From a virus (taxonomy: Duplodnaviria; Heunggongvirae; Uroviricota; Caudoviricetes), in the IMG/VR virus record IMGVR_UViG_2737471843_000007: a stretch of 24,606 nt of DNA; one strand, given 5' to 3'. The translations under genes were made by a program, and so were the position numbers. Shown one piece after another: positions 2,566 through 24,606 of the stretch. The notes beneath the pieces were generated by a model. That model searched no databases, was not told the DNA's origin, and was given only the letters and a program-made list of their open reading frames with translations. Within the stretch, counting starts at the first letter, position 1. Every line of letters starts with the position of its first letter.

Positions 2566-2911
2566 TCTCTGCTCCTGTTGATACGGAAAGGGACACAGGC
2601 ACACCGTTATTCCGCCGCCCGGTCAGCTCCACCACCATAGAACCGTCAAAGTTGCTGTTGATGGTGATGGAATCCAGCGTTAGCCGTGGCTCCCAGCGAC
2701 TCAGCGCCACATACACTGCCGACATGACCTGCAGGCGTAATGCCGGATTTTGTGGCTGATCTATCAGTGCCGACAGTAGGGAACCATATTCCCGACGGGC
2801 AATGCGGCTACCCTGCGGCGTCAGCAGAATGTCCCGCACCGACTGGCGCAGATGGTCAATATCAGTAATGACTTTGCCGCTGGTATTGTTCATCCCGCTA
2901 TAAAGCGTCAT
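2552..2911 (-). CDS. W: Baseplate wedge protein (P2 gpW, GPW/gp25 family)
   Basis: The 119-aa ORF MTLYSGMNNTSGKVITDIDHLRQSVRDILLTPQGSRIARREYGSLL matches the gpW/gp25 signature. It overlaps J and V in the typical compact arrangement. Confidence 0.9.
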   Translation of the reverse strand: MTLYSGMNNTSGKVITDIDHLRQSVRDILLTPQGSRIARREYGSLLSALIDQPQNPALRLQVMSAVYVALSRWEPRLTLDSITINSNFDGSMVVELTGRRNNGVPVSLSVSTGAENGSD

Positions 2912-3486
2912 ACCGGGCCTCCGGTTGTGTCGCCGCCTTTCAGGACGCCAGTATGCTGATGTGCATCAACCACAATTCCGTTAGAACTCATTGCACCGCC
3001 GCCCTGGGTAACACCACCATTGATCACTACTTCGCTGTTAATACGCGTGCGGTCAGCCTCCAGCACAAACTCACTGGTTTTCAGGGTGATGTTGTCGGCA
3101 GCCTCAATGACCATGGATTTGATGCCCCTGACATACCAGCGCCCGGTGGCGGGTTCGTATTCAAACCAGCCACCGTCAGGATGTTCTGTCACGCAGGCGT
3201 CCGCCGACGTCGAAGGTGGCGCGAACTGATTCGAATAGACAGCGGGCAACGCAAAGGCGGTTTCCAGATTGCCTCCCAGACTCAGCAGCACCACCTGCTC
3301 ACCTTCCGATGGTCGCCACCATGTGCGGGCATTCCCGGCACGCAGCGTCAGCCAACTGATCCAGTTAGTTTCAAGGTCGCCCGTTTTCACCCGGCAAAGC
3401 CAGTTCTCCCGGTCCACTTCGGTAACTACACCTGTGCGGATCAGGTTGGTGATAAGGCGCATGATTTCGGTTAATTGTGCGTTCAT
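2908..3486 (-). CDS. V: Baseplate spike / tail protein (P2 gpV-like)
   Basis: The internal start MNAQLTEIMRLITNLIRTGVVTEVD aligns with the P2 gpV N-terminus (MN...IRTGII); ATG at 3486-3484. The upstream extension to 3729 runs into AT-rich intergenic DNA and is rejected. No clear SD precedes the ATG. Confidence 0.85.
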   Translation of the reverse strand: MNAQLTEIMRLITNLIRTGVVTEVDRENWLCRVKTGDLETNWISWLTLRAGNARTWWRPSEGEQVVLLSLGGNLETAFALPAVYSNQFAPPSTSADACVTEHPDGGWFEYEPATGRWYVRGIKSMVIEAADNITLKTSEFVLEADRTRINSEVVINGGVTQGGGAMSSNGIVVDAHQHTGVLKGGDTTGGPV

Positions 3487-3532
3487 AGATATATGATGAC
3501 AGATGAAAATTTGTTTATAACTTCTTGCAAAT

Positions 3533-3550
3533 TGTGGTATCGATGGTACA
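3533..3550. promoter_or_regulatory. TGT-N12-ACA dyad, candidate binding site for an Ogr/B-type late activator (late promoter upstream of V)
   Basis: The sequence TGTggtatcgatggtACA is exactly TGT-N12-ACA. P2-family late promoters carry this dyad, but geometry relative to the V ATG (about 55 bp) is tighter than expected. Confidence 0.45.
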
Positions 3551-3589
3551 AATTGACAAAAGGATAAAAAACAACCAATAGGTGGATAA

Positions 3590-4396
3590 ATGAGTGTTAT
3601 GAATCCAATAAGTTCTAATATATTTAATGCTGAATTTTTAAACACCCCGGCAGCGGCACTTGCCGCATGGATTTCCATTATTGGAGCTGTTATAACTTTG
3701 GTGACGATAGTTATAAGAGCACTATTCAAATATAGAAAATCTCATGATGTAATTTTGAAAAAATCAGGAATACCTGCGTTTATATTAAATTTCTTTCTTA
3801 TAAAAATATCATTAAAAAGGCTGCCTACTATCACATGGGCTGAAAAATCATTCACGGTTCTATTTTCGCTTCTTTTTTTGTGTGCAATTTATCTTTTTGG
3901 TCCAGTTTTCATCCAAGCCATTAGAACCCCACCAAATAGCACATTGCTTTATTGGATAAAGTCCGGTGAATCATTTTATATGTCAAAAAAAATGGCGACT
4001 GCAGCTACAATATTAACCACTCCTGATTGGGAAATATCAAAGGATGATTGCGAAGAGTCATCCTCTGCCAGTACAGAGAAGTACAAATCATTAACTATCG
4101 AACATAAAGAAATTCTTTGTAAACTACTAACCACTGATGAAGGGAATGCTTACATTGATGAAGAAGTCAAGAATTTCGTTAAAGACAAATTTTTTATCTA
4201 TTCCTTTGCCCCAACAACTATATTTATTCTATTATGGATTTCTTTGGGTTTTATACTGACCATTCACTATTCTAAAAAAGTTAGGAAATATATTCTAACT
4301 GAACAAAAAAATGCAATTCATTGGGCATATGGTGAATTCAAGACAGAAGGAATCTATTCAATATATCAAGAGTTAGAACATAAGACTCACCATTAA
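3590..4396 (+). CDS. Cargo (moron) gene in the P2 orf30 position: predicted 3-TM membrane protein of unknown function
   Basis: The 268-aa ORF has an SD (GGTGGA) before the ATG at 3590. The region 3490-4390 is visibly AT-rich against the GC-rich backbone. Hydrophobic segments: AAALAAWISIIGAVITLVTIVI, FTVLFSLLFLCAIYLFGPVFIQAI and TTIFILLWISLGFILTIHY. The last 59 nt overlap the 3' end of S on the opposite strand. Confidence 0.6.
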   Translation: MSVMNPISSNIFNAEFLNTPAAALAAWISIIGAVITLVTIVIRALFKYRKSHDVILKKSGIPAFILNFFLIKISLKRLPTITWAEKSFTVLFSLLFLCAIYLFGPVFIQAIRTPPNSTLLYWIKSGESFYMSKKMATAATILTTPDWEISKDDCEESSSASTEKYKSLTIEHKEILCKLLTTDEGNAYIDEEVKNFVKDKFFIYSFAPTTIFILLWISLGFILTIHYSKKVRKYILTEQKNAIHWAYGEFKTEGIYSIYQELEHKTHH

Positions 4397-4784
4397 GACC
4401 CAGCAGTCGGCGCTCTGCGTAACGGACCTCCGGTCCTTTGCGACTGACGCGATCACGCAGGCCGTAATGGTGAACACGGGCAATACGCTGCACCTTGCCT
4501 TCAAACTGTACGCTGGCAGAGTCGGCGCTGGCGGCAGTTTTCAGGTATTTTGTGGTGCGCAGCTTTGCAAACATCTGACGTTTGATGCGGCCTTTTTTGC
4601 TGCGTGCTGTTACCCTGCGCGGTTCATAACTGCTGCCATCTGGATTGCGCTGCATCCTGATATTCTGCTGCTGTGTCCGGCGCAGTTCCTGCGCCAGCTG
4701 GCGCATCATGCGGCTTCTCGTGGCTGGTTCCAGATTCGCCAGCAAGGCACTCAGCCAGTCGTCCACCTTCTGCAGTTCAGCCAC
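4338..4784 (-). CDS. S: Tail completion protein (P2 gpS-like)
   Basis: The 148-aa ORF lies between R and V as in P2; it is basic and of similar length to gpS. Its C-terminal ~15 codons are encoded by AT-rich DNA shared with the moron. Confidence 0.8.
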   Translation of the reverse strand: MAELQKVDDWLSALLANLEPATRSRMMRQLAQELRRTQQQNIRMQRNPDGSSYEPRRVTARSKKGRIKRQMFAKLRTTKYLKTAASADSASVQFEGKVQRIARVHHYGLRDRVSRKGPEVRYAERRLLGLNGESYVLTLDILNRFLLS

Positions 4785-9847: not shown

Positions 9848-9865
9848 TGTACCGACAACCACACA
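9848..9865. promoter_or_regulatory. TGT-N12-ACA dyad in the O/P divergent intergenic region, candidate late-activator site (probably serving the O promoter)
   Basis: The sequence TGTaccgacaaccacACA is exactly TGT-N12-ACA. Its centre is about 87 bp from the O ATG, consistent with a -55 site plus a ~30-nt leader. Confidence 0.55.
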
Positions 9866-9911
9866 AACCGCAGGCGGGGAAAGCCTTCATTCAAGACTGT
9901 AGGTTTGTGCC

Positions 9912-11678
9912 ATGAACACCACACTGACACCCGCAGATCTCGATCCCCGTCGGCAGGCCATGCTGCTGTACTTTCAGGGATACCGCGTAGCCCGCATTGC
10001 TGAAATGCTGGGCGAGAAAGTTGCAACCGTTCACAGCTGGAAAAAACGCGACAAGTGGGGTGACTATGGGCCGCTGGATCAGATGCAGCTCACCACCGCC
10101 GCACGCTACTGCCAGCTCATCATGAAGGAGCACAAAGAAGGGAAAGATTTCAAAGAGATTGACCTGCTGGCGCGCCAGTCTGAGCGCCACGCGCGGATCG
10201 GCAAGTTTAACAATGGCGGCAACGAAGCCGACTTAAACCCTAACGTCGCCAACCGCAACAAAGGCCCGCGCCGTCAGCCGGAAAAAAATGTCTTCACCGA
10301 TGAACAGATTGAGAAGCTGGAAGAAATCTTCCATTCCTCCATGTTCAACTACCAGCGCCACTGGTGGGAAGCCGGAAAAACCAACCGCATCCGCAACCTG
10401 CTGAAGTCACGCCAGATCGGCGCGACCTTTTACTTTGCCCGTGAAGCCCTGATTGACGCCCTGCTTACCGGGCGTAACCAGATTTTCCTTTCCGCCAGTA
10501 AGGCACAGGCCCACGTCTTTAAGCAGTACATCATCGACTTCGCCAAAGAAGTGGAGGTGGAGCTGAAAGGCGATCCGATGGTGCTTCCTAACGGGGCCAC
10601 GCTTTACTTCCTCGGCACCAATGCCCGCACGGCCCAGAGTTATCACGGCAACCTGTATCTGGATGAATATTTCTGGATACCGAAATTTCAGGAGCTACGC
10701 AAAGTGGCTTCCGGTATGGCTATTCACAAGAAATGGCGGCAGACCTATTTTTCCACACCATCCAGTCTGACCCACAGTGCTTATCCGTTCTGGTCCGGTG
10801 CGCTGTTCAACCGTGGGCGCAACAAAGCTGACAAGGTGGACATCGACCTGTCCCACAGCAATCTGGCCCCCGGCCTGCTGTGCGCAGACGGGCAATACCG
10901 CCAGATAGTCACCGTGGAAGATGCGGTGCGCGGCGGCTGTAACCTGTTCGACCTCGACCAGTTGCGCATGGAGTACAGCCCGGACGAATACCAGAACCTG
11001 CTGATGTGTGAGTTCGTAGACGATCTCGCGTCCGTGTTCCCGCTCAGCGAGCTGCAGGCGTGCATGGTGGACAGCTGGGAAGTCTGGACCGACTTTCATG
11101 CACTGGCCCTGCGCCCGTTTGGCTGGCGCGAGGTGTGGATCGGTTATGACCCGGCAAAAGGTACGCAGAACGGCGACAGTGCCGGATGCGTGGTGGTGGC
11201 ACCGCCAGCCGTGCCGGGCGGCAAGTTCCGCATTCTTGAGCGTCACCAGTGGCGCGGGATGGACTTTCGCGCCCAAGCTGACGCCATCAAAAAACTGACC
11301 GAACAGTACAACGTGACCTATATCGGCATCGACTCAACCGGCGTTGGTCACGGGGTTTATGAGAACGTGAAAGCGTTCTTTCCTGCCGTCCGGGAGTTTG
11401 TCTACAACCCCAACGTTAAAAACGCCCTGGTACTCAAGGCCTACGACATTATCAGCCACCGCCGTCTGGAGTTTGACGCCGGGCACACCGACATTGCGCA
11501 GTCATTCATGGCAATCCGTCGCGCCACCACCGCCAGTGGCAACCGCCCGACCTATGAAGCCAGCCGCAGCGAAGAAGCCAGCCACGCCGATCTGGCCTGG
11601 GCAACGATGCACGCACTGTTTAACGAACCGCTGCAGGGCGAATCCGCCAATACCAGCAATATTGTGGAGATTTTTTGA
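9912..11678 (+). CDS. P: Terminase large (ATPase) subunit (P2 gpP-like)
   Basis: The 588-aa ORF has ATG at 9912. P2 gpP-like sequence is present throughout, and it is divergent from O as in P2. Confidence 0.95.
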   Translation: MNTTLTPADLDPRRQAMLLYFQGYRVARIAEMLGEKVATVHSWKKRDKWGDYGPLDQMQLTTAARYCQLIMKEHKEGKDFKEIDLLARQSERHARIGKFNNGGNEADLNPNVANRNKGPRRQPEKNVFTDEQIEKLEEIFHSSMFNYQRHWWEAGKTNRIRNLLKSRQIGATFYFAREALIDALLTGRNQIFLSASKAQAHVFKQYIIDFAKEVEVELKGDPMVLPNGATLYFLGTNARTAQSYHGNLYLDEYFWIPKFQELRKVASGMAIHKKWRQTYFSTPSSLTHSAYPFWSGALFNRGRNKADKVDIDLSHSNLAPGLLCADGQYRQIVTVEDAVRGGCNLFDLDQLRMEYSPDEYQNLLMCEFVDDLASVFPLSELQACMVDSWEVWTDFHALALRPFGWREVWIGYDPAKGTQNGDSAGCVVVAPPAVPGGKFRILERHQWRGMDFRAQADAIKKLTEQYNVTYIGIDSTGVGHGVYENVKAFFPAVREFVYNPNVKNALVLKAYDIISHRRLEFDAGHTDIAQSFMAIRRATTASGNRPTYEASRSEEASHADLAWATMHALFNEPLQGESANTSNIVEIF

Positions 11679-12761: not shown

Positions 12762-13100
12762 TTAACAAACGGCGTATAAACCATCAAATCCAACGGAATG
12801 AACCTTTTTTGATGCTACTTCATTACTACGGCGTTGGATCACTTTTGCAATACTTTTTAAAATTGAAGGGGGTGCATTGCGAACCTTAACTTGACTCAAA
12901 ACTTTGGTTACACCGAATTTCACTACCAAAACACCAAAGATTTCATCAGAGTATGATTCTGAAATTGAATAAACACCGCTCAGATCTAAATCTACGGTAT
13001 ACCCTTCTTTAATGAACCCTTCAATCTTGTGTCGTTGGGGGATAGCCTGATTGCGCGAAGCCAGGTCACCCTCGGGTAACTTGTATGCGATTTTGTTCAT
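12762..13100 (-). CDS. Small STAS-like protein (DUF4325-like / anti-sigma-antagonist-like fold suspected); second gene of a two-gene cargo cassette
   Basis: The 112-aa ORF has a strong SD (AGGAGGAG). Its ATG overlaps the upstream stop (TAATG). The motif VDLDLSGVYSISESYSDEIFGVLVVKFG resembles STAS-like domains from memory; the region is AT-rich. Confidence 0.55.
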   Translation of the reverse strand: MNKIAYKLPEGDLASRNQAIPQRHKIEGFIKEGYTVDLDLSGVYSISESYSDEIFGVLVVKFGVTKVLSQVKVRNAPPSILKSIAKVIQRRSNEVASKKVHSVGFDGLYAVC

Positions 13101-14074
13101 TACTCTCCTCCTAACGCCCGCATTATTTCCATAAGCTGAGGGTCATTTTCTTCGCTATCTTTATCGACTGCCAGTTCATGAATCTTAAAACGGCAAGAAA
13201 TTGCTACACCCGGCCATTCAGTACGTAATTCAGTATAGCTCACTTCATCACCTATTGCTTCTAAGCATACATTTCCTGAAGCCAGTTGCAATTCCCCATT
13301 ATATGTTTTTATCAATTTCATCAAGTGATACAACCCAAGCCCTTGATGATTATTATCTTTTTCTTTGACCGAAACCCCGTGGCCAAACACACTACCCCCA
13401 ATAAAGTCCTGGGGAAGCTGCTGTGCCCAATCATCCTGCAAATCAGCATGCTTAGATGAATGTCCCTCTTGAATACACCATGCGATCGCATCCTGGTGAG
13501 TCTCAATTCCGGGTATACCAGCTCGCCGCAATTCTCGGAGAAATCCTAACCCACAGTCCGCCAAAGAAAATTCTAAATAGTGCTCTTTTTTTTGAGTGTG
13601 GGGTACAGCCGAACGTTGTGCAAAAGAAAAACCCGTTGATTTTCCATGCGACCAAACGTTATCGTGAAGCTCACCTATAACATGGGTTAGATCTGTAAGT
13701 CCCTTGGGACAATCTCTCGGATCACGATCAGGGAATGTTAACTGCCTTACACAACTGTTAATACTACCAGTGGCAACGTCAACAGCTTCAACATTGGTTA
13801 ATGCTGTAACCAAACTGTAATTTCTTCCAACATTTACACGTTCCTGTTGATACTGATCCTCTCCCCATAAAGCACCATGTAAATTGATAGCTCGCATATA
13901 GCCAGGGCATGACAAAACACAGTTATCTTCGGTAATTTTGTGATGATTCACGTAAGCTGCTAAGACAGTGATAAAACCAGGATGCCAATGATTGTTTGGC
14001 AATTGCAATTCATTAGTTTCCTTTTGATGAAACGCAGCGGTATGCACAATAGCGTCTTTTAATCCTAACCCCAT
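13100..14074 (-). CDS. GHKL (histidine-kinase-like, Bergerat fold) ATPase-domain protein; first gene of the cargo cassette
   Basis: The 324-aa ORF carries, in correct order, an N-box-like GELHDNVWSHG, a G1-box LADCGLGF (DxGxG) and a G2-box HQGLGLYHL (GxGxG). It is AT-rich and translationally coupled to the downstream small gene. Confidence 0.6.
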   Translation of the reverse strand: MGLGLKDAIVHTAAFHQKETNELQLPNNHWHPGFITVLAAYVNHHKITEDNCVLSCPGYMRAINLHGALWGEDQYQQERVNVGRNYSLVTALTNVEAVDVATGSINSCVRQLTFPDRDPRDCPKGLTDLTHVIGELHDNVWSHGKSTGFSFAQRSAVPHTQKKEHYLEFSLADCGLGFLRELRRAGIPGIETHQDAIAWCIQEGHSSKHADLQDDWAQQLPQDFIGGSVFGHGVSVKEKDNNHQGLGLYHLMKLIKTYNGELQLASGNVCLEAIGDEVSYTELRTEWPGVAISCRFKIHELAVDKDSEENDPQLMEIMRALGGE

Positions 14075-14103
14075 GAACCGAACCTTTTTTATGCATTTTT
14101 CTT

Positions 14104-14132
14104 ATCATATAACTTAGGACTGATCAGCGCAA
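14104..14132 (-). promoter_or_regulatory. Candidate sigma70 promoter for the GHKL/STAS cassette
   Basis: On the minus strand: TTGCGC, 17-nt spacer, TATGAT, about 25 nt upstream of the ATG at 14074. Confidence 0.35.
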
Positions 14133-14192
14133 AGCTCCCGACACTATTGAATCATACTAAATTAAGGCCTATACCACACAGCACAGCGCGCG

Positions 14193-14211
14193 CTCGTATC
14201 CCCGCCACGCC
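14193..14211. other. Candidate cos site (cohesive-end sequence of the P2/186 family)
   Basis: The minus strand reads GGCGTGGCGGGGATACGAG. The first 13 nt match the cohesive-end sequence of P2/186 as I recall it (GGCG[A/T]GGCGGGGA...). It lies between the early region and the late region, as expected. Confidence 0.5.
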
Positions 14212-14255
14212 TGCCCGCTTTATGTAGTGGTTTTCATGCACCTGCATGATCTACG

Positions 14256-14280
14256 CAAAAGCCCGCCAGAACTGGCGGGC
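14256..14280 (-). terminator. Rho-independent terminator ending the minus-strand early/cargo transcript before cos
   Basis: Perfect inverted repeat GCCCGCCAG-aa-CTGGCGGGC, followed on the minus strand by TTTTG. Confidence 0.55.
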
Positions 14281-14384
14281 CTTAACACAAAAGATCCTCA
14301 AACGATCATGCGATCTCATGCAGCATAGACATGCGCGTTTATGCAGAATGTGCAAAATCGTAACATACTCAGTAAGCGTGAAAC

Positions 14385-15062
14385 CTAGAACGTGACAGCC
14401 TTGTCAAAGCCAGAAATAATTGTATAAGAAATAGACGAGTTATCAGCCTTGTTCACTTTGAACTTGGCACCTTTGTAAGCGATAACGTCACTTCCCTTAG
14501 AATCTACAGAAAAATCTGTTGTAAATGCTGCACGAGCCATATCGTTTGCAAATTCACGATAGGTGAACTTCATTACACCGCCTGCATTTCCATTGTATTC
14601 GATAGTCTTAACCAATGAGTTACTAACTCGACACAGCCCATCAGGAACACGTTTGATAGAAATTTCTGATGCAGTATAAGAAGTACCATTTGGCGGTGAT
14701 ATCTCATTTTTTGCAGCATCGTAACTAACATAATCAACATAGTTACCGATTTGCCCATAGAGATTTTTTAACGCAACAGCTTGAGGGTTATGATAATTGC
14801 GGTAAATTCCATTCCCCTCACTGCAATATGTACCAGCAGCGATAGAAGACAATGCACCATTAGCCGCACCAAGTTCTAGTACGTCCGTTTTAAATCCAGT
14901 AGCAGATGTGATAATGGGATCGCCCATGTAGGCGGTAGCACTTTGCCCAATAGCAGGCTTCACCACTTCAATAGCAGTGATATTTCGGTTAGAAGCATGT
15001 GGCACGCAACCAGTTAGGATTACAGCAAGAGATATTGGTAACGCTACATTATTAATTTTCAT
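14385..15062 (-). CDS. Cargo lipoprotein of unknown function (predicted outer-membrane lipoprotein)
   Basis: From the internal Met the protein starts MKINNVALPISLAVILTGC, with lipobox LTGC. The ORF-track start at 15116 would span a hairpin plus T-tract and is rejected. The start coordinate may be off by 1-2 nt. The region is AT-rich. Confidence 0.6.
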   Translation of the reverse strand: MKINNVALPISLAVILTGCVPHASNRNITAIEVVKPAIGQSATAYMGDPIITSATGFKTDVLELGAANGALSSIAAGTYCSEGNGIYRNYHNPQAVALKNLYGQIGNYVDYVSYDAAKNEISPPNGTSYTASEISIKRVPDGLCRVSNSLVKTIEYNGNAGGVMKFTYREFANDMARAAFTTDFSVDSKGSDVIAYKGAKFKVNKADNSSISYTIISGFDKAVTF

Positions 15063-21793: not shown

Positions 21794-23470
21794 ATGAATT
21801 CATTTTCCATCGTTATATTCTTATTAGCATTTCTCGCCCCTGTTCTAGCTATAATATTATTTAAGCAAAGTAAAGAACACAAAACCGCCATAGATAACCT
21901 GACGGCTAACAACATAGCTCTTTCCAGCCAACTGAAAGAAAATCAAGAAGAATTAGCACAGACTGTACGAGATCTATCAGAGCTTGAAGGACGAGCTGCA
22001 CCATTATGGCAATACGTAGAATTGCACAGCGCAGTGATGGAAGCAGAGAATAAGATAAAAAATGCAGACTCAATAGCCAGGCAAAAAATAGAAGAAGCCC
22101 AAATAAAGGCTGCTAAGACAGTAAACGAAGCAAATTATCAAGCTCAGATAACAATAAGCAACGCTAATAGCGAAGCTATAGCAATCACCAAAGACGCTCG
22201 CGATGCACGCCTGAAAGCCAAAGAACGTCTTGATAATGCCAACAGTAAAGCAAATGAGCTGATCTCAAATGCTAATGACAACGCAGTAAAAATTATTTCC
22301 GATGCAGAAGAAAGAGCAAAAGAGATTGCTGGTTCAGCATATGAAGCTAAAGAGTTTGCAGAAAAATATGAAGCAGTTGCCAAATCAATGAAAAATAAAA
22401 TTGAAGGTTATGGCGATGAATGGATCATCCCTAACCGTAGTGTACTTGATGAATTGGCAGAAAATTATGAGTTTACAGATGCAGGCAAGGAATTACAAAA
22501 AGCCAGGGAGTTAACAAAATCATTAATAAAAACTAATAAAGCAGCTTCGTGTGATTATGTTGAGCAAAACAGGCGTAATACTGCTATCAACTTTGTTTTG
22601 GATGCCTTCAATGGAAGAGTTGACAGTATTTTATCAAAAGTCAAACACAACAATTTTGGAAAACTTTCCCAAGAAATAAAAGATGCATTTCAACTTGTAA
22701 ATTATAATGGCTCTGCTTTTAAATCCGCAAAAATAAGTGACATCTATCTTCAGGCACGACTCAACGAGCTAAAATGGGGAGTTGCAGTTAATGAAATTAT
22801 GCTCGAAGAAAAAGAGGAGCAAAGAAGGATTAAAGAACAGCTTCGTGAAGAGGAAAGAGCTCGTAGAGAGTATGAAAAAGCGATAAAAGAAGCCGAAAAA
22901 GAAGAGAAAGCTATTCAACAAGCTATAAATAAAGCGACGAAAGAGCTTATGCTTGCAAATGAAGAACAACGCTTAGCTTTAGAGCAAAAAATAGCTGAAC
23001 TACAGTTAAAATATGAAGAAGCTGAAGCTAAAAACCAACGAGCTATTTCTATGGCTCAACAAACTAGATCAGGCCATGTTTATATAATTAGCAATATTGG
23101 CTCATTTGGCGAAGATGTATATAAAATTGGAATGACACGCCGCCTTGAACCACTTGATCGTGTTCGTGAACTTGGGGATGCTAGTGTTCCTTTTTCGTTC
23201 GATGTTCATGCGATGATTTATAGTGATGATGCACCGTCATTAGAAAATCATCTGCATAAAGTCTTCAACGAAAAGCAGGTCAATAAAATTAACTCACGAA
23301 AAGAGTTTTTTAACGTAAATATTAAAGAAATTAAATCGGTTATTGAAGATATGAACATCAATGCCCACTGGACAATGTTTGCAGAGGCGAAAGAATATAG
23401 AGAGTCACTAGCTATTGAGCAGGAACGCAAAGCAGCCACTTCCGCCAACGATGAACTACATGTTGCTTAG
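21794..23470 (+). CDS. Cargo gene: membrane-anchored coiled-coil protein with DUF4041-like region and C-terminal T5orf172 (GIY-YIG-like) domain
   Basis: The 558-aa ORF has SD AAGGA before the ATG and is strongly AT-rich. It has an N-terminal TM (FSIVIFLLAFLAPVLAIILF) and a long K/E/A-rich coiled coil. The C-terminus GHVYIISNIGSFGEDVYKIGMTRRLEPLDRVRELGD...LENHLHKVFNEKQVN...KEFFNV fits the T5orf172/Mug113 pattern. Confidence 0.7.
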   Translation: MNSFSIVIFLLAFLAPVLAIILFKQSKEHKTAIDNLTANNIALSSQLKENQEELAQTVRDLSELEGRAAPLWQYVELHSAVMEAENKIKNADSIARQKIEEAQIKAAKTVNEANYQAQITISNANSEAIAITKDARDARLKAKERLDNANSKANELISNANDNAVKIISDAEERAKEIAGSAYEAKEFAEKYEAVAKSMKNKIEGYGDEWIIPNRSVLDELAENYEFTDAGKELQKARELTKSLIKTNKAASCDYVEQNRRNTAINFVLDAFNGRVDSILSKVKHNNFGKLSQEIKDAFQLVNYNGSAFKSAKISDIYLQARLNELKWGVAVNEIMLEEKEEQRRIKEQLREEERARREYEKAIKEAEKEEKAIQQAINKATKELMLANEEQRLALEQKIAELQLKYEEAEAKNQRAISMAQQTRSGHVYIISNIGSFGEDVYKIGMTRRLEPLDRVRELGDASVPFSFDVHAMIYSDDAPSLENHLHKVFNEKQVNKINSRKEFFNVNIKEIKSVIEDMNINAHWTMFAEAKEYRESLAIEQERKAATSANDELHVA

Positions 23471-23528
23471 CAATGTATGTTTCATAGCAATCACACATTG
23501 ATTACTGGTTGTATATACAGTTAAATTT

Positions 23529-23553
23529 AGCCCTCTGATATGAGGGCTTTTTT
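23529..23553 (+). terminator. Rho-independent terminator immediately upstream of the int start codon
   Basis: Hairpin AGCCCTC-tgatat-GAGGGCT is followed by TTTTT, which runs directly into the int ATG at 23554. Confidence 0.6.
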
Positions 23554-24606
23554 ATGGCAGTACGAAAACTCACCACAGGAAAATGGCTGTGCGAATGTTA
23601 TCCCGCCGGACGTAGTGGACGTCGTGTGCGTAAACAATTCGCCACCAAAGGCGAAGCTCTGGCTTTTGAGCGTCACACGATGGAAGAAACCGAAGCAAAG
23701 CCCTGGCTAGGTGAATCAGTGGATCGTCGAACACTGAAAGACGTGGTTGAGCTATGGTTCAAACTACATGGTAAATCACTGACTGCTGGGCAGCATGTCT
23801 ATGACAAATTGCTGCTGATGGTTGACGCTCTGGGCAATCCCCTTGCAACGGATCTAACCTCTAAAATGTTTGCCCACTATCGAGATAAACGCCTGACAGG
23901 CGAGATCTACTTCAGCGAGAAATGGAAGAAAGGAGCAAGCCCGGTCACCATTAACCTGGAGCAAAGCTATCTAAGTAGTGTTTTTAGCGAACTATCCCGT
24001 CTGGGCGAATGGTCGTATCCGAACCCACTGGAGAACATGCGAAAATTCACCATCGCAGAAAAAGAGATGGCATGGCTTACCCATGAGCAGATTGTTGAAT
24101 TGCTGGCTGATTGCAAACGTCAGGACCCAATTCTGGCACTGGTAGTTAAGATATGCTTAAGCACAGGCGCACGCTGGCGTGAAGCCGTAAATCTTACCCG
24201 CTCACAGGTGACCAAATACCGAATTACCTTTGTCAGAACGAAGGGGAAGAAAAACAGAAGCATCCCTATCAGTAAAGAGCTTTACGAAGAGATCATGGCG
24301 CTCGATGGGTTCAATTTCTTCACAGACTGCTATTTTCAATTTTTATCCGTGATGGAAAAAACGTCTATCGTGCTCCCTCGCGGTCAACTCACACACGTTC
24401 TGCGCCATACGTTTGCAGCGCACTTCATGATGTCGGGTGGAAACATTCTGGCCTTACAAAAAATTCTCGGACACCACGATATAAAAATGACTATGCGTTA
24501 CGCACATCTGGCACCGGATCATCTGGAAACGGCGCTCCGTTTCAATCCTCTGGCAACGCTGCCAAGTGGCGACAAAGTGGCGGCAGCGGTTGGCATTACC
24601 CCGTAA
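23554..24606 (+). CDS. int: Tyrosine integrase (P2/186 Int family)
   Basis: The 350-aa ORF has an N-terminus MAVRKLTTGKW...GRRVRKQFATKGEALAFE like P2 Int, and C-terminal catalytic motifs (HVLRHTFA; MRYAHL). Confidence 0.9.
   Translation: MAVRKLTTGKWLCECYPAGRSGRRVRKQFATKGEALAFERHTMEETEAKPWLGESVDRRTLKDVVELWFKLHGKSLTAGQHVYDKLLLMVDALGNPLATDLTSKMFAHYRDKRLTGEIYFSEKWKKGASPVTINLEQSYLSSVFSELSRLGEWSYPNPLENMRKFTIAEKEMAWLTHEQIVELLADCKRQDPILALVVKICLSTGARWREAVNLTRSQVTKYRITFVRTKGKKNRSIPISKELYEEIMALDGFNFFTDCYFQFLSVMEKTSIVLPRGQLTHVLRHTFAAHFMMSGGNILALQKILGHHDIKMTMRYAHLAPDHLETALRFNPLATLPSGDKVAAAVGITP

Follow-up and report, generated by a model that had tools for sequence, protein, structure and literature searches.

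The 24,606-nt stretch of Caudoviricetes DNA analyzed here (IMG/VR record IMGVR_UViG_2737471843_000007, hereafter the window) is a P2/186/Fels-2-type prophage of Escherichia coli, 100% identical to the chromosome of strain STEC1587, and between its tail genes V and S it carries a gene of the DUF6216 family. This open reading frame (ORF) is a real gene under purifying selection. Alignment of related loci shows that the exchange unit of the S-V hotspot consists of the last 19 codons of S, the cargo gene and a cassette-specific region around pV, the late promoter of V. We hypothesize that the DUF6216 protein is an unrecognised single-protein anti-phage system of the inner membrane, acting by superinfection exclusion or abortive infection; that it sits in the S-V slot as a gene useful to the host and is repeatedly the last intact gene in prophages decayed at the ybjL-rcdA and rpoD-mug sites; that its copy in BL21 perhaps shapes phage sensitivity; and that its C-terminal 21 residues are a young, overprinted peptide. 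To this hypothesis as a whole we assign a probability of roughly 0.35.

A conserved gene in the S-V slot

The late genes of the prophage are on the minus strand, with V (2908-3486) and S (4338-4784) followed by R, lysC/B, lysozyme and holin genes. Between V and S lies an island (3487-4397) with a GC content of ~0.3 against 0.57; in 200-nt windows the value is 0.28-0.38 over ~3401-4400 and 0.53-0.62 on either side. The island holds one long ORF, at 3590-4396 on the plus strand, encoding 268 aa. A first-pass annotation, made from the letters of the window, had described an AT-rich island of ~0.9 kb between V and S and had read it as a membrane-protein moron in the S-V (orf30) hotspot. The GC profile agrees with the first statement, and composition together with presence or absence of the gene among close relatives agrees with the second. 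An Rfam scan of the window returned zero matches.

The ORF matches the Pfam family DUF6216 (PF19723) over residues 71-237, scoring 49.1 bits where the cut-off is 27.3 (E = 5.9e-13), and its RefSeq name is 'DUF6216 family protein' (WP_022645427.1). A search of 5.8 billion proteins yielded 32 relatives, which apart from one 167-aa fragment are 50-97% identical; those with a named source come from Escherichia, Salmonella, Klebsiella, Citrobacter and Serratia. Fifty family members were found by a profile search of 1.84 billion cluster representatives. Pairwise dN/dS between the window gene and its homologs from Serratia, K. aerogenes and locus L009 is 0.14-0.33. These ratios, together with the conservation of the family, led us to reject the reading of this frame as a junk ORF.

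Of 5426 complete E. coli genomes, 111 carry the gene, with 109 copies on chromosomes and 2 on plasmids; it also occurs on 19 IMG/VR viral contigs. In the 60 entries listed, an IS1 insertion disrupts one copy, another has a split annotation (H99), and all others are annotated as single intact genes. The first-pass annotation had considered that the ORF might lack homologs and be interrupted in close prophages; homologs are in fact many and nearly all intact. In strain EC19 (H72; NZ_CP182182.1 3286295-3287819) the element that interrupts the gene is IS1B.

All of the E. coli B derivatives listed, including BL21(DE3), C41/C43 and ATCC 11303, carry a copy that is 98.3% identical at the nucleotide level (ECD_RS04470). 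This copy lies in a defective P2-like prophage that also holds retron Ec86 and occupies the ybjL/rcdA site, as does the window prophage, which is integrated beside rcdA-ybjJ with its integrase abutting rcdA-ybjJ (window 22471-24606). The BL21(DE3) prophage (L026, NC_012971.2 873173-897920) has the same V-DUF6216-S order as the window and the same 59-nt overlap between DUF6216 and S. The features of the window on which the following sections draw are these:

2908-3486, minus strand: gene V, baseplate assembly/spike protein (Pfam Phage_base_V and Apex); its ATG is the left border of the cassette by alignment
3487-4397, unstranded: AT-rich exchangeable cassette, from the V start codon to the LLG codons of S (GC profile; identity break points)
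3525-3552, plus strand: predicted sigma-70 promoter of the DUF6216 gene (inferred), with a -35 element TTGCAA at 3525-3530, a 16-nt spacer ending in TGG and a -10 element TACAAA at 3547-3552
3533-3550, minus strand: TGT-N12-ACA dyad, the expected Ogr/B late-activator site of the V promoter (pattern match; kept in cargo-less relatives and in relatives with other cargo)
3580-3585, plus strand: Shine-Dalgarno sequence AGGTGG, 4 nt upstream of the ATG (sequence; aligned loci)
3590-4396, plus strand: DUF6216 family gene, 268 aa, predicted inner-membrane protein (PF19723; hydropathy and charge; dN/dS; AlphaFold2)
4331-4396, plus strand: clade-specific C-terminal extension of DUF6216, residues 248-268 GEFKTEGIYSIYQELEHKTHH, and stop codon (family alignment; conservation)
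4338-4396, unstranded: convergent dual-coding overlap of DUF6216 and S, 59 nt (coordinates; dS; substitution at 4369; conservation)
4338-4397, minus strand: S tail allele, residues 130-148 LNGESYVLTLDILNRFLLS, and stop codon, travelling with the cassette (comparisons with relatives)
4338-4784, minus strand: gene S, phage virion morphogenesis/tail completion protein, 148 aa (Pfam Phage_tail_S, E = 8.3e-40, profile positions 2-147 of 148; RefSeq)

The end of S moves with the cargo

The C terminus of S had been noted in the first pass as encoded by AT-rich DNA over ~15 residues. The composition holds (GC is 0.32 in the S tail after LLG and 0.58 in the S body), and the stretch is 19 residues long. 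An alignment of S with its relatives had been proposed as the check, a perfect match to the last residue being the result that would speak against a chimeric end. Against the cargo-less relative CP019275, in which S and V are separated by a gap of 68 nt, residues 1-129 of the window S are identical and the last 19 differ (LNGESYVLTLDILNRFLLS in the window, VNDDVEAMTRDMILQWLAG in CP019275). The DNA identity breaks right after CTGCTGGGT, which encodes LLG, at ~nt 4397/4398; this is the border of the island, one base past the DUF6216 stop codon. The other break point, seen against the cargo-less relative L002, is the V ATG (3486), and the right-hand break in L002 also falls after CTGCTGGGT (~4398).

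Although the S C terminus thus differs from its nearest cargo-less relatives exactly from the island border, as the first-pass claim of a replaced S end had it, the replacement is itself an S end. The window tail has the same length as ordinary S tails, aligns with them in register and shares 4-9 of 19 residues with them, and a sister tail allele shares 11 of 19 with that of a cargo-less Klebsiella phage. When S tails were shuffled, no more than 1 in 20,000 shuffles reached the observed score in the best comparisons (p < 5e-5). By these alignments, the S tail of the window is a homologous allele of ordinary S tails and not foreign sequence.

The 120 S proteins with bodies 81-99% identical to that of the window have many tail types, all of which follow the pattern xNxE...TxDxLxxWLxx. 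Downstream of the sampled tail types there is an empty 68-nt gap, a DUF2971 protein, a 481-aa protein of no known kind, PARIS, or a Sll1717-family ATPase, and the DUF6216-type tail accompanies DUF6216 in Escherichia, Serratia and metagenomic P2-like contigs. The GC content of the S tail is 0.25-0.32 with every cargo examined and 0.43-0.63 without cargo. Since AT-rich tails occur with every other cargo examined, S-tail swapping is a property of the hotspot and not of DUF6216. At the other end of the unit, the ~100 nt upstream of V differ by cargo, while the TGT-N12-ACA dyad is kept at a constant distance from V. Because identity stops at the LLG codons and the V ATG, and because no flanking direct repeats or transposon-like ends were found at the island, we infer that cassettes are exchanged through homologous recombination within the S body and V.

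Whatever the function of the cargo, the exchange unit therefore takes in the C-terminal 19 codons of an essential tail gene along with the late-promoter region of V. Automated delimitation of hotspots that is anchored on whole core genes will misplace the S-V borders, and S tails should be usable as markers of cassette type.

Other occupants of the slot each have an AT-rich S tail of their own. PARIS (AriA + AriB/DUF4435) is found in L024 (3503-5606), and a DUF2971 protein that matches the PADLOC candidate PDC-S31 in L021 (3456-4325). In L003 (3053-4564) the cargo is a P-loop ATPase of the Sll1717 family, whose gene shares the strand of S and V. The 481-aa protein in L022 (3492-4937) has no PADLOC match, and no Pfam match is on record for it.

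An overlap constrained in both frames

The DUF6216 gene and S converge, and the 59 nt that they share contain, from S, the stop codon, codons 131-148 and two bases of codon 130. RefSeq annotates the same overlap, which the first-pass annotation had described correctly as the last 59 nt of the ORF running antisense to the final ~19 codons of S. Residues 250-268 of DUF6216 are the ones encoded antisense to S.

The overlap is present, as 59 nt (268-aa form) or 47 nt (264-aa form), in 17 of 17 intact related loci whose DUF6216 proteins are 50-100% identical. It is kept even in the most diverged of these, a viral contig with DUF6216 50% and S 83% identical. In the comparison of the window with Serratia, the overlap has a dS of 0.18 and the remainder of the gene one of 0.81. 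Where S is pseudogenised (K. aerogenes and L009) dS of the tail rises to 0.67-0.99, with dN at 0.12-0.20; the low dN where S is dead indicates that the extension is also selected in the DUF6216 frame. Single substitutions here can alter both proteins, as does A>C at nt 4369 between the window and BL21 (L026 12780), which changes DUF6216 by Q260H and S by L139R at once. Both frames are conserved and synonymous divergence is lowered in the overlap, as expected of dual-coding sequence. From these comparisons, the overlap is old and conserved, and both of its reading frames are constrained. The substitution at 4369 restores in BL21 the canonical T-R-D motif of S tails.

The family alignment suggests which of the two genes was extended. 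The C-terminal extension is missing from all 20 distant DUF6216 relatives that were aligned: 17 of them (232-246 aa) end at the equivalent of window residue ~246-247, and the other three (273-296 aa) have an unrelated, longer C terminus. The extra 17-21 residues, GEFKxEGIYxIYQEL..., occur only in the P2-slot clade and in one chromosomal relative (P0033), and within the P2-slot clade G248, E249, F250, G254, Y256, Y259, E261 and L262 are invariant. The opposite-strand cargos examined in other phages (L021, L022 and L024) have ORFs that end 5-25 nt beyond the S stop codon, without overlap. Because the S tail is ancestral to S, and because DUF6216 proteins without the extension are deeper and more diverse in the family, the overlap most likely arose by overprinting, in which DUF6216 gained 17-21 codons on the antisense strand of S. 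The ancestral DUF6216 stop codon, ~5 nt from that of S, would have been lost and the ORF extended into S.

The first-pass annotation had the history the other way round. It suggested that the insertion had replaced the native S C terminus and created the overlap. Read as a model of origin, a recent illegitimate insertion would have truncated S and fused foreign sequence to it, with the overlap as an accident of this event. The S body does match that of a cargo-less relative at 100% as far as the island border, beyond which the tail is AT-rich. However, a tail that is homologous to ordinary S tails, in register with them and of identical length contradicts this origin, and so does the occurrence of the same tail type and overlap with DUF6216 genes that are 50% identical; AT-rich tails are in addition found with all other cargos examined. 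We regard such an insertion as highly improbable and abandon the claim that it wrote a new S end and created the overlap.

A predicted three-helix inner-membrane protein

Kyte-Doolittle hydropathy places three hydrophobic helices in the DUF6216 protein, at residues ~22-46, ~87-110 and ~206-228. The loop at 47-86 has 9 K/R to 2 D/E; that at 111-205 (95 aa) has 16 D/E to 12 K/R and 21 S/T, including the run EESSSAST; and the C-terminal 40 residues are basic. Hydropathy and residue counts thus uphold the three helices and the acidic, Ser-rich central loop of the first-pass description, and support its multi-pass membrane protein as a prediction. By the positive-inside rule, applied to the charges of the loops, the N terminus is predicted to lie outside and the C terminus inside, with a basic cytoplasmic loop and an acidic periplasmic domain of ~95 aa.

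In a family alignment of 25 members, reaching down to 20% identity, only F129, C154 and C177 are invariant and W147 is nearly so; all four are within the predicted periplasmic domain. The protein thus has the architecture of its family: about 230-270 aa, three hydrophobic helices, and F / W / C...C in the central loop. The pair C154/C177 would fit a periplasmic disulfide. In the full-length AlphaFold2 model, the predicted periplasmic domain is a small four-stranded sheet with helices, its core having a pLDDT of ~90. Neither the full model nor the isolated domain has a convincing likeness to solved structures or to predicted viral structures.

Retention in decayed prophages

The gene repeatedly outlasts its neighbours. 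Beside rpoD-mug in Serratia rubidaea, ogr, an 80-codon fragment of V, DUF6216 and S are the only genes left. At the rpoD-mug site of K. aerogenes, S has stop codons and V is a 23-codon stub, with DUF6216 intact. At L009, between ybjL and a 186-type CI gene, short degraded V and S flank an intact DUF6216. Because DUF6216 repeatedly outlasts decaying neighbours, its survival points to a benefit for the host.

More distant DUF6216 genes (21-40% identity), also intact, are found at L012 and L013-L018 between ybjL and an rcdA-like tetR gene, the interval in which the window and BL21 prophages are integrated, and another (L050) lies near rpoD-mug beside a Fic gene. These chromosomal genes may be the last survivors of decayed prophages. 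At L028/L029 (4985-10741), a DUF6216 gene without the C-terminal extension follows an AlpA gene and precedes a GAAD / GASH / DO-GTPase1/2 / GAP1-N1 set. This set is a predicted GTPase-centred conflict system, and the mobile island in which it lies also has CbtA and DUF932.

At L009 (5257-7849), DUF6216 is followed by the 186-type CI repressor gene and by a gene for an ATPase of 662 aa, whose PADLOC matches are AriA, Old and GajA.

Expression signals

The centre of the TGT-N12-ACA dyad upstream of V is 55.5 nt from the V ATG, which is the distance of the annotated pV activator site in P2. On the opposite strand, promoter-like blocks precede the DUF6216 gene, and we read them as an extended -10 promoter with a predicted transcription start near 3559. 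The region between V and DUF6216 is more conserved than the coding sequence among loci whose proteins are 50-58% identical, and in six loci, some of them remnants with a mutated TGT half-site, CTTCTTGCAA and TGGTACAAATTGA stand as invariant blocks. A similar promoter-like architecture lies upstream of distant family members.

AT-rich islands are typical H-NS targets. We propose that the DUF6216 gene is transcribed in the lysogen from its own sigma-70 promoter, possibly damped by H-NS. Because the predicted -10 element overlaps the right half of the late-activator dyad, activator binding in the lytic cycle could, as a speculation, switch the region from cargo expression to V expression. Since no terminator was found between the DUF6216 gene and S, late transcripts through S are predicted to run antisense across the cargo and cargo transcripts antisense into S. 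A preprint on H-NS silencing of immunity loci (bioRxiv 10.64898/2026.09.05.749240) mentions a 'DUF6216 gene', BL21, P2-like elements and retrons, which we take as a lead only.

What the DUF6216 protein may do

Our best guess is that the DUF6216 protein excludes phages at the level of the envelope. It would act at the inner membrane or in the periplasm and would guard the host against other phages, most likely by keeping their genomes from entering (superinfection exclusion). As the host would be the one to benefit, the gene would outlive the prophage and be kept in decayed P2-like remnants. We favour exclusion because DUF6216 is a single gene without a partner and has a conserved domain predicted to be exposed to the periplasm, because defence-type cargo is found in the same slot and beside a distant relative, and because the gene is retained after prophage decay. 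By prediction only, it is a prophage-encoded integral inner-membrane protein, as superinfection-exclusion membrane proteins are. We put some anti-phage role, of either kind, at about even odds; most of this goes to exclusion and a minor part to an abortive or toxic effector in the membrane.

Several results weigh against an anti-phage role. No homology link to any exclusion or defence protein was found in the databases searched. The remote homology search proposed in the first pass placed the protein in the Pfam family DUF6216 and went no further: PADLOC-DB v2 gave 0 families at E <= 1, and PHROGs, NCBIfam and the PDB profile search gave 0 matches each. A tblastn search of 50,697 GenBank phage records found the gene in no isolated phage. 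Within 4-6 kb of the chromosomal DUF6216 copies that lack the C-terminal extension no P2 gene remnants were found, so the prophage origin of the distant copies is argued from location only. Location is itself weak evidence of function, as hotspot cargo is not always defensive. Finally, a consensus scan of 3300-4700 reported no plus-strand sigma-70 promoter and no intrinsic terminator; the promoter that we predict went unreported because position 6 of its -10 element is A.

An alternative is a lysogenic-conversion or host-fitness factor apart from phage defence, for example one that serves the envelope, transport or the stress response and benefits the host directly. In its favour are the intact copies, under purifying selection, at chromosomal sites without other phage genes nearby, and the lack of similarity to any defence family. 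Set against this are the defence-type character of the other cargos in the slot and of the neighbours of one distant relative, and the fact that no transporter or enzyme signature was found by Pfam, PDB profile search or structure comparison. We judge this explanation to be rather unlikely, although it is the strongest of the alternatives.

Somewhat less probable still is an abortive-infection or toxic membrane effector, holin-like or pore-forming, which would be silenced (e.g., by H-NS), released or activated on infection, and would kill the cell. A multi-pass membrane protein encoded in an AT-rich island is compatible with this, as is a weak similarity of the first transmembrane helix to the HP1 holin family (PF16080; E = 0.032, 14.7 bits). 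The mention of a 'DUF6216 gene' in the preprint on H-NS silencing would also fit. However, that match is below the cut-off of 28.8 bits and is confined to one helix, the gene is single and has no sensor partner, and holin-like effectors do not typically have a large, conserved domain in the periplasm that bears a pair of cysteines. The stability of intact copies in many genomes, including the B strains, does not suggest strong toxicity.

A role intrinsic to the phage, in which the gene or an antisense transcript regulates S, the late genes, tail assembly or lysis, might be read from the convergent 59-nt overlap with S, between which genes no terminator was found, and from the overlap of the predicted promoter with the pV late-activator site; yet close relatives with 100% identical S bodies do without the DUF6216 gene, DUF6216 persists at loci where S and V have become pseudogenes or are missing, and it is the protein sequence and not RNA alone that is conserved, so we give this explanation very little credence.

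If the DUF6216 protein, as we prefer to think, is a defence or exclusion protein, it would represent a new membrane-based single-gene system. The hypothesis is directly testable because a near-identical copy is present in BL21(DE3) and other B strains. If it is true, the BL21 copy may contribute to the phage sensitivity profile of E. coli B.

Relation to known systems

T4 Imm, P22 SieA and HK97 gp15 are prophage-encoded inner-membrane superinfection-exclusion proteins. They resemble the predicted DUF6216 protein in being small, single-gene, prophage-borne inner-membrane proteins with a periplasm-exposed part, encoded outside the structural operons. DUF6216 itself showed no sequence or fold similarity to an annotated family.

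P2-like phages have three classical loci of horizontally acquired, AT-rich, non-essential DNA, namely orf30, Z/fun and tin-old (TO), and foreign genes are common at orf30 (PMC3091744; PMC6823313). As the first-pass annotation had stated, P2 has orf30 in the same S-V slot. The two cargos are alike in lying opposite to the late operons, in being AT-rich, in being missing from close relatives, and in size (261 aa in P2, 268 aa in the window). They differ in that P2 orf30 lies behind a terminator between it and S and does not overlap S, whereas the window ORF runs 59 nt into it, and in that the proteins are unrelated. We rejected homology with P2 Orf30 on an hhalign probability of 0.2% and on the assignment of P2 Orf30 to phrog_2407, the window protein being without a PHROG match; P2 Orf30 has no Pfam match.

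The S-V slot also resembles the defence hotspots of P2-like phages at old/tin and Z/fun, where variable cargo between core genes is swapped among near-identical phages (Rousset et al. 2022, PMC9122126; PMC13586616), and it holds PARIS in other phages. DUF6216 differs in not being a recognised defence gene. Defence systems have been reported within P2 tail genes (Moura de Sousa et al. 2026, PMC13586616). The passages of PMC9122126 and PMC13586616 consulted contain no mention that we could find of the S-V slot, of co-transfer of the S tail or of the pV region. The S-V hotspot, the Pfam family and the annotation of the gene are already known. Apparently new, in that we did not find them in the parts of the literature covered, are the inclusion of the S tail and pV region in the swapped unit, the overprinted tail constrained in both frames, and the repeated retention of the gene in remnants, including those of E. 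coli B.

As in other overprinted or antisense phage genes, two conserved proteins are here encoded on opposite strands of 47-59 nt, where synonymous change is held down and one substitution can affect both proteins. The DUF6216/S overlap differs from these in being short and in joining a core structural gene to a mobile accessory gene, and because of this junction it moves within the hotspot cassette. It thus offers a clean case of overprinting, in which a mobile accessory gene extended into the end of a core structural gene and now co-evolves with it.

Other features of the prophage

The window has cargo in a second P2 hotspot as well, between the portal gene Q and the replication gene A. An AT-rich trio at 12762-15062 on the minus strand (GC 0.38-0.45) encodes proteins of 112 aa (STAS-like), 324 aa and 225 aa (hypothetical). 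Its sole match is a weak one in PADLOC, where the STAS-like protein resembles a segment of DrmA (E = 4.7e-6). In the related prophage of BL21, the Q-A position is taken by retron Ec86. The trio may be uncharacterised defence cargo.

The capsid-scaffold (O) and terminase (P) genes diverge from a gap of 142 nt that contains two further TGT-N12-ACA dyads, at 9848-9865 and 9906-9923; these are presumably the activator sites of divergent late promoters.

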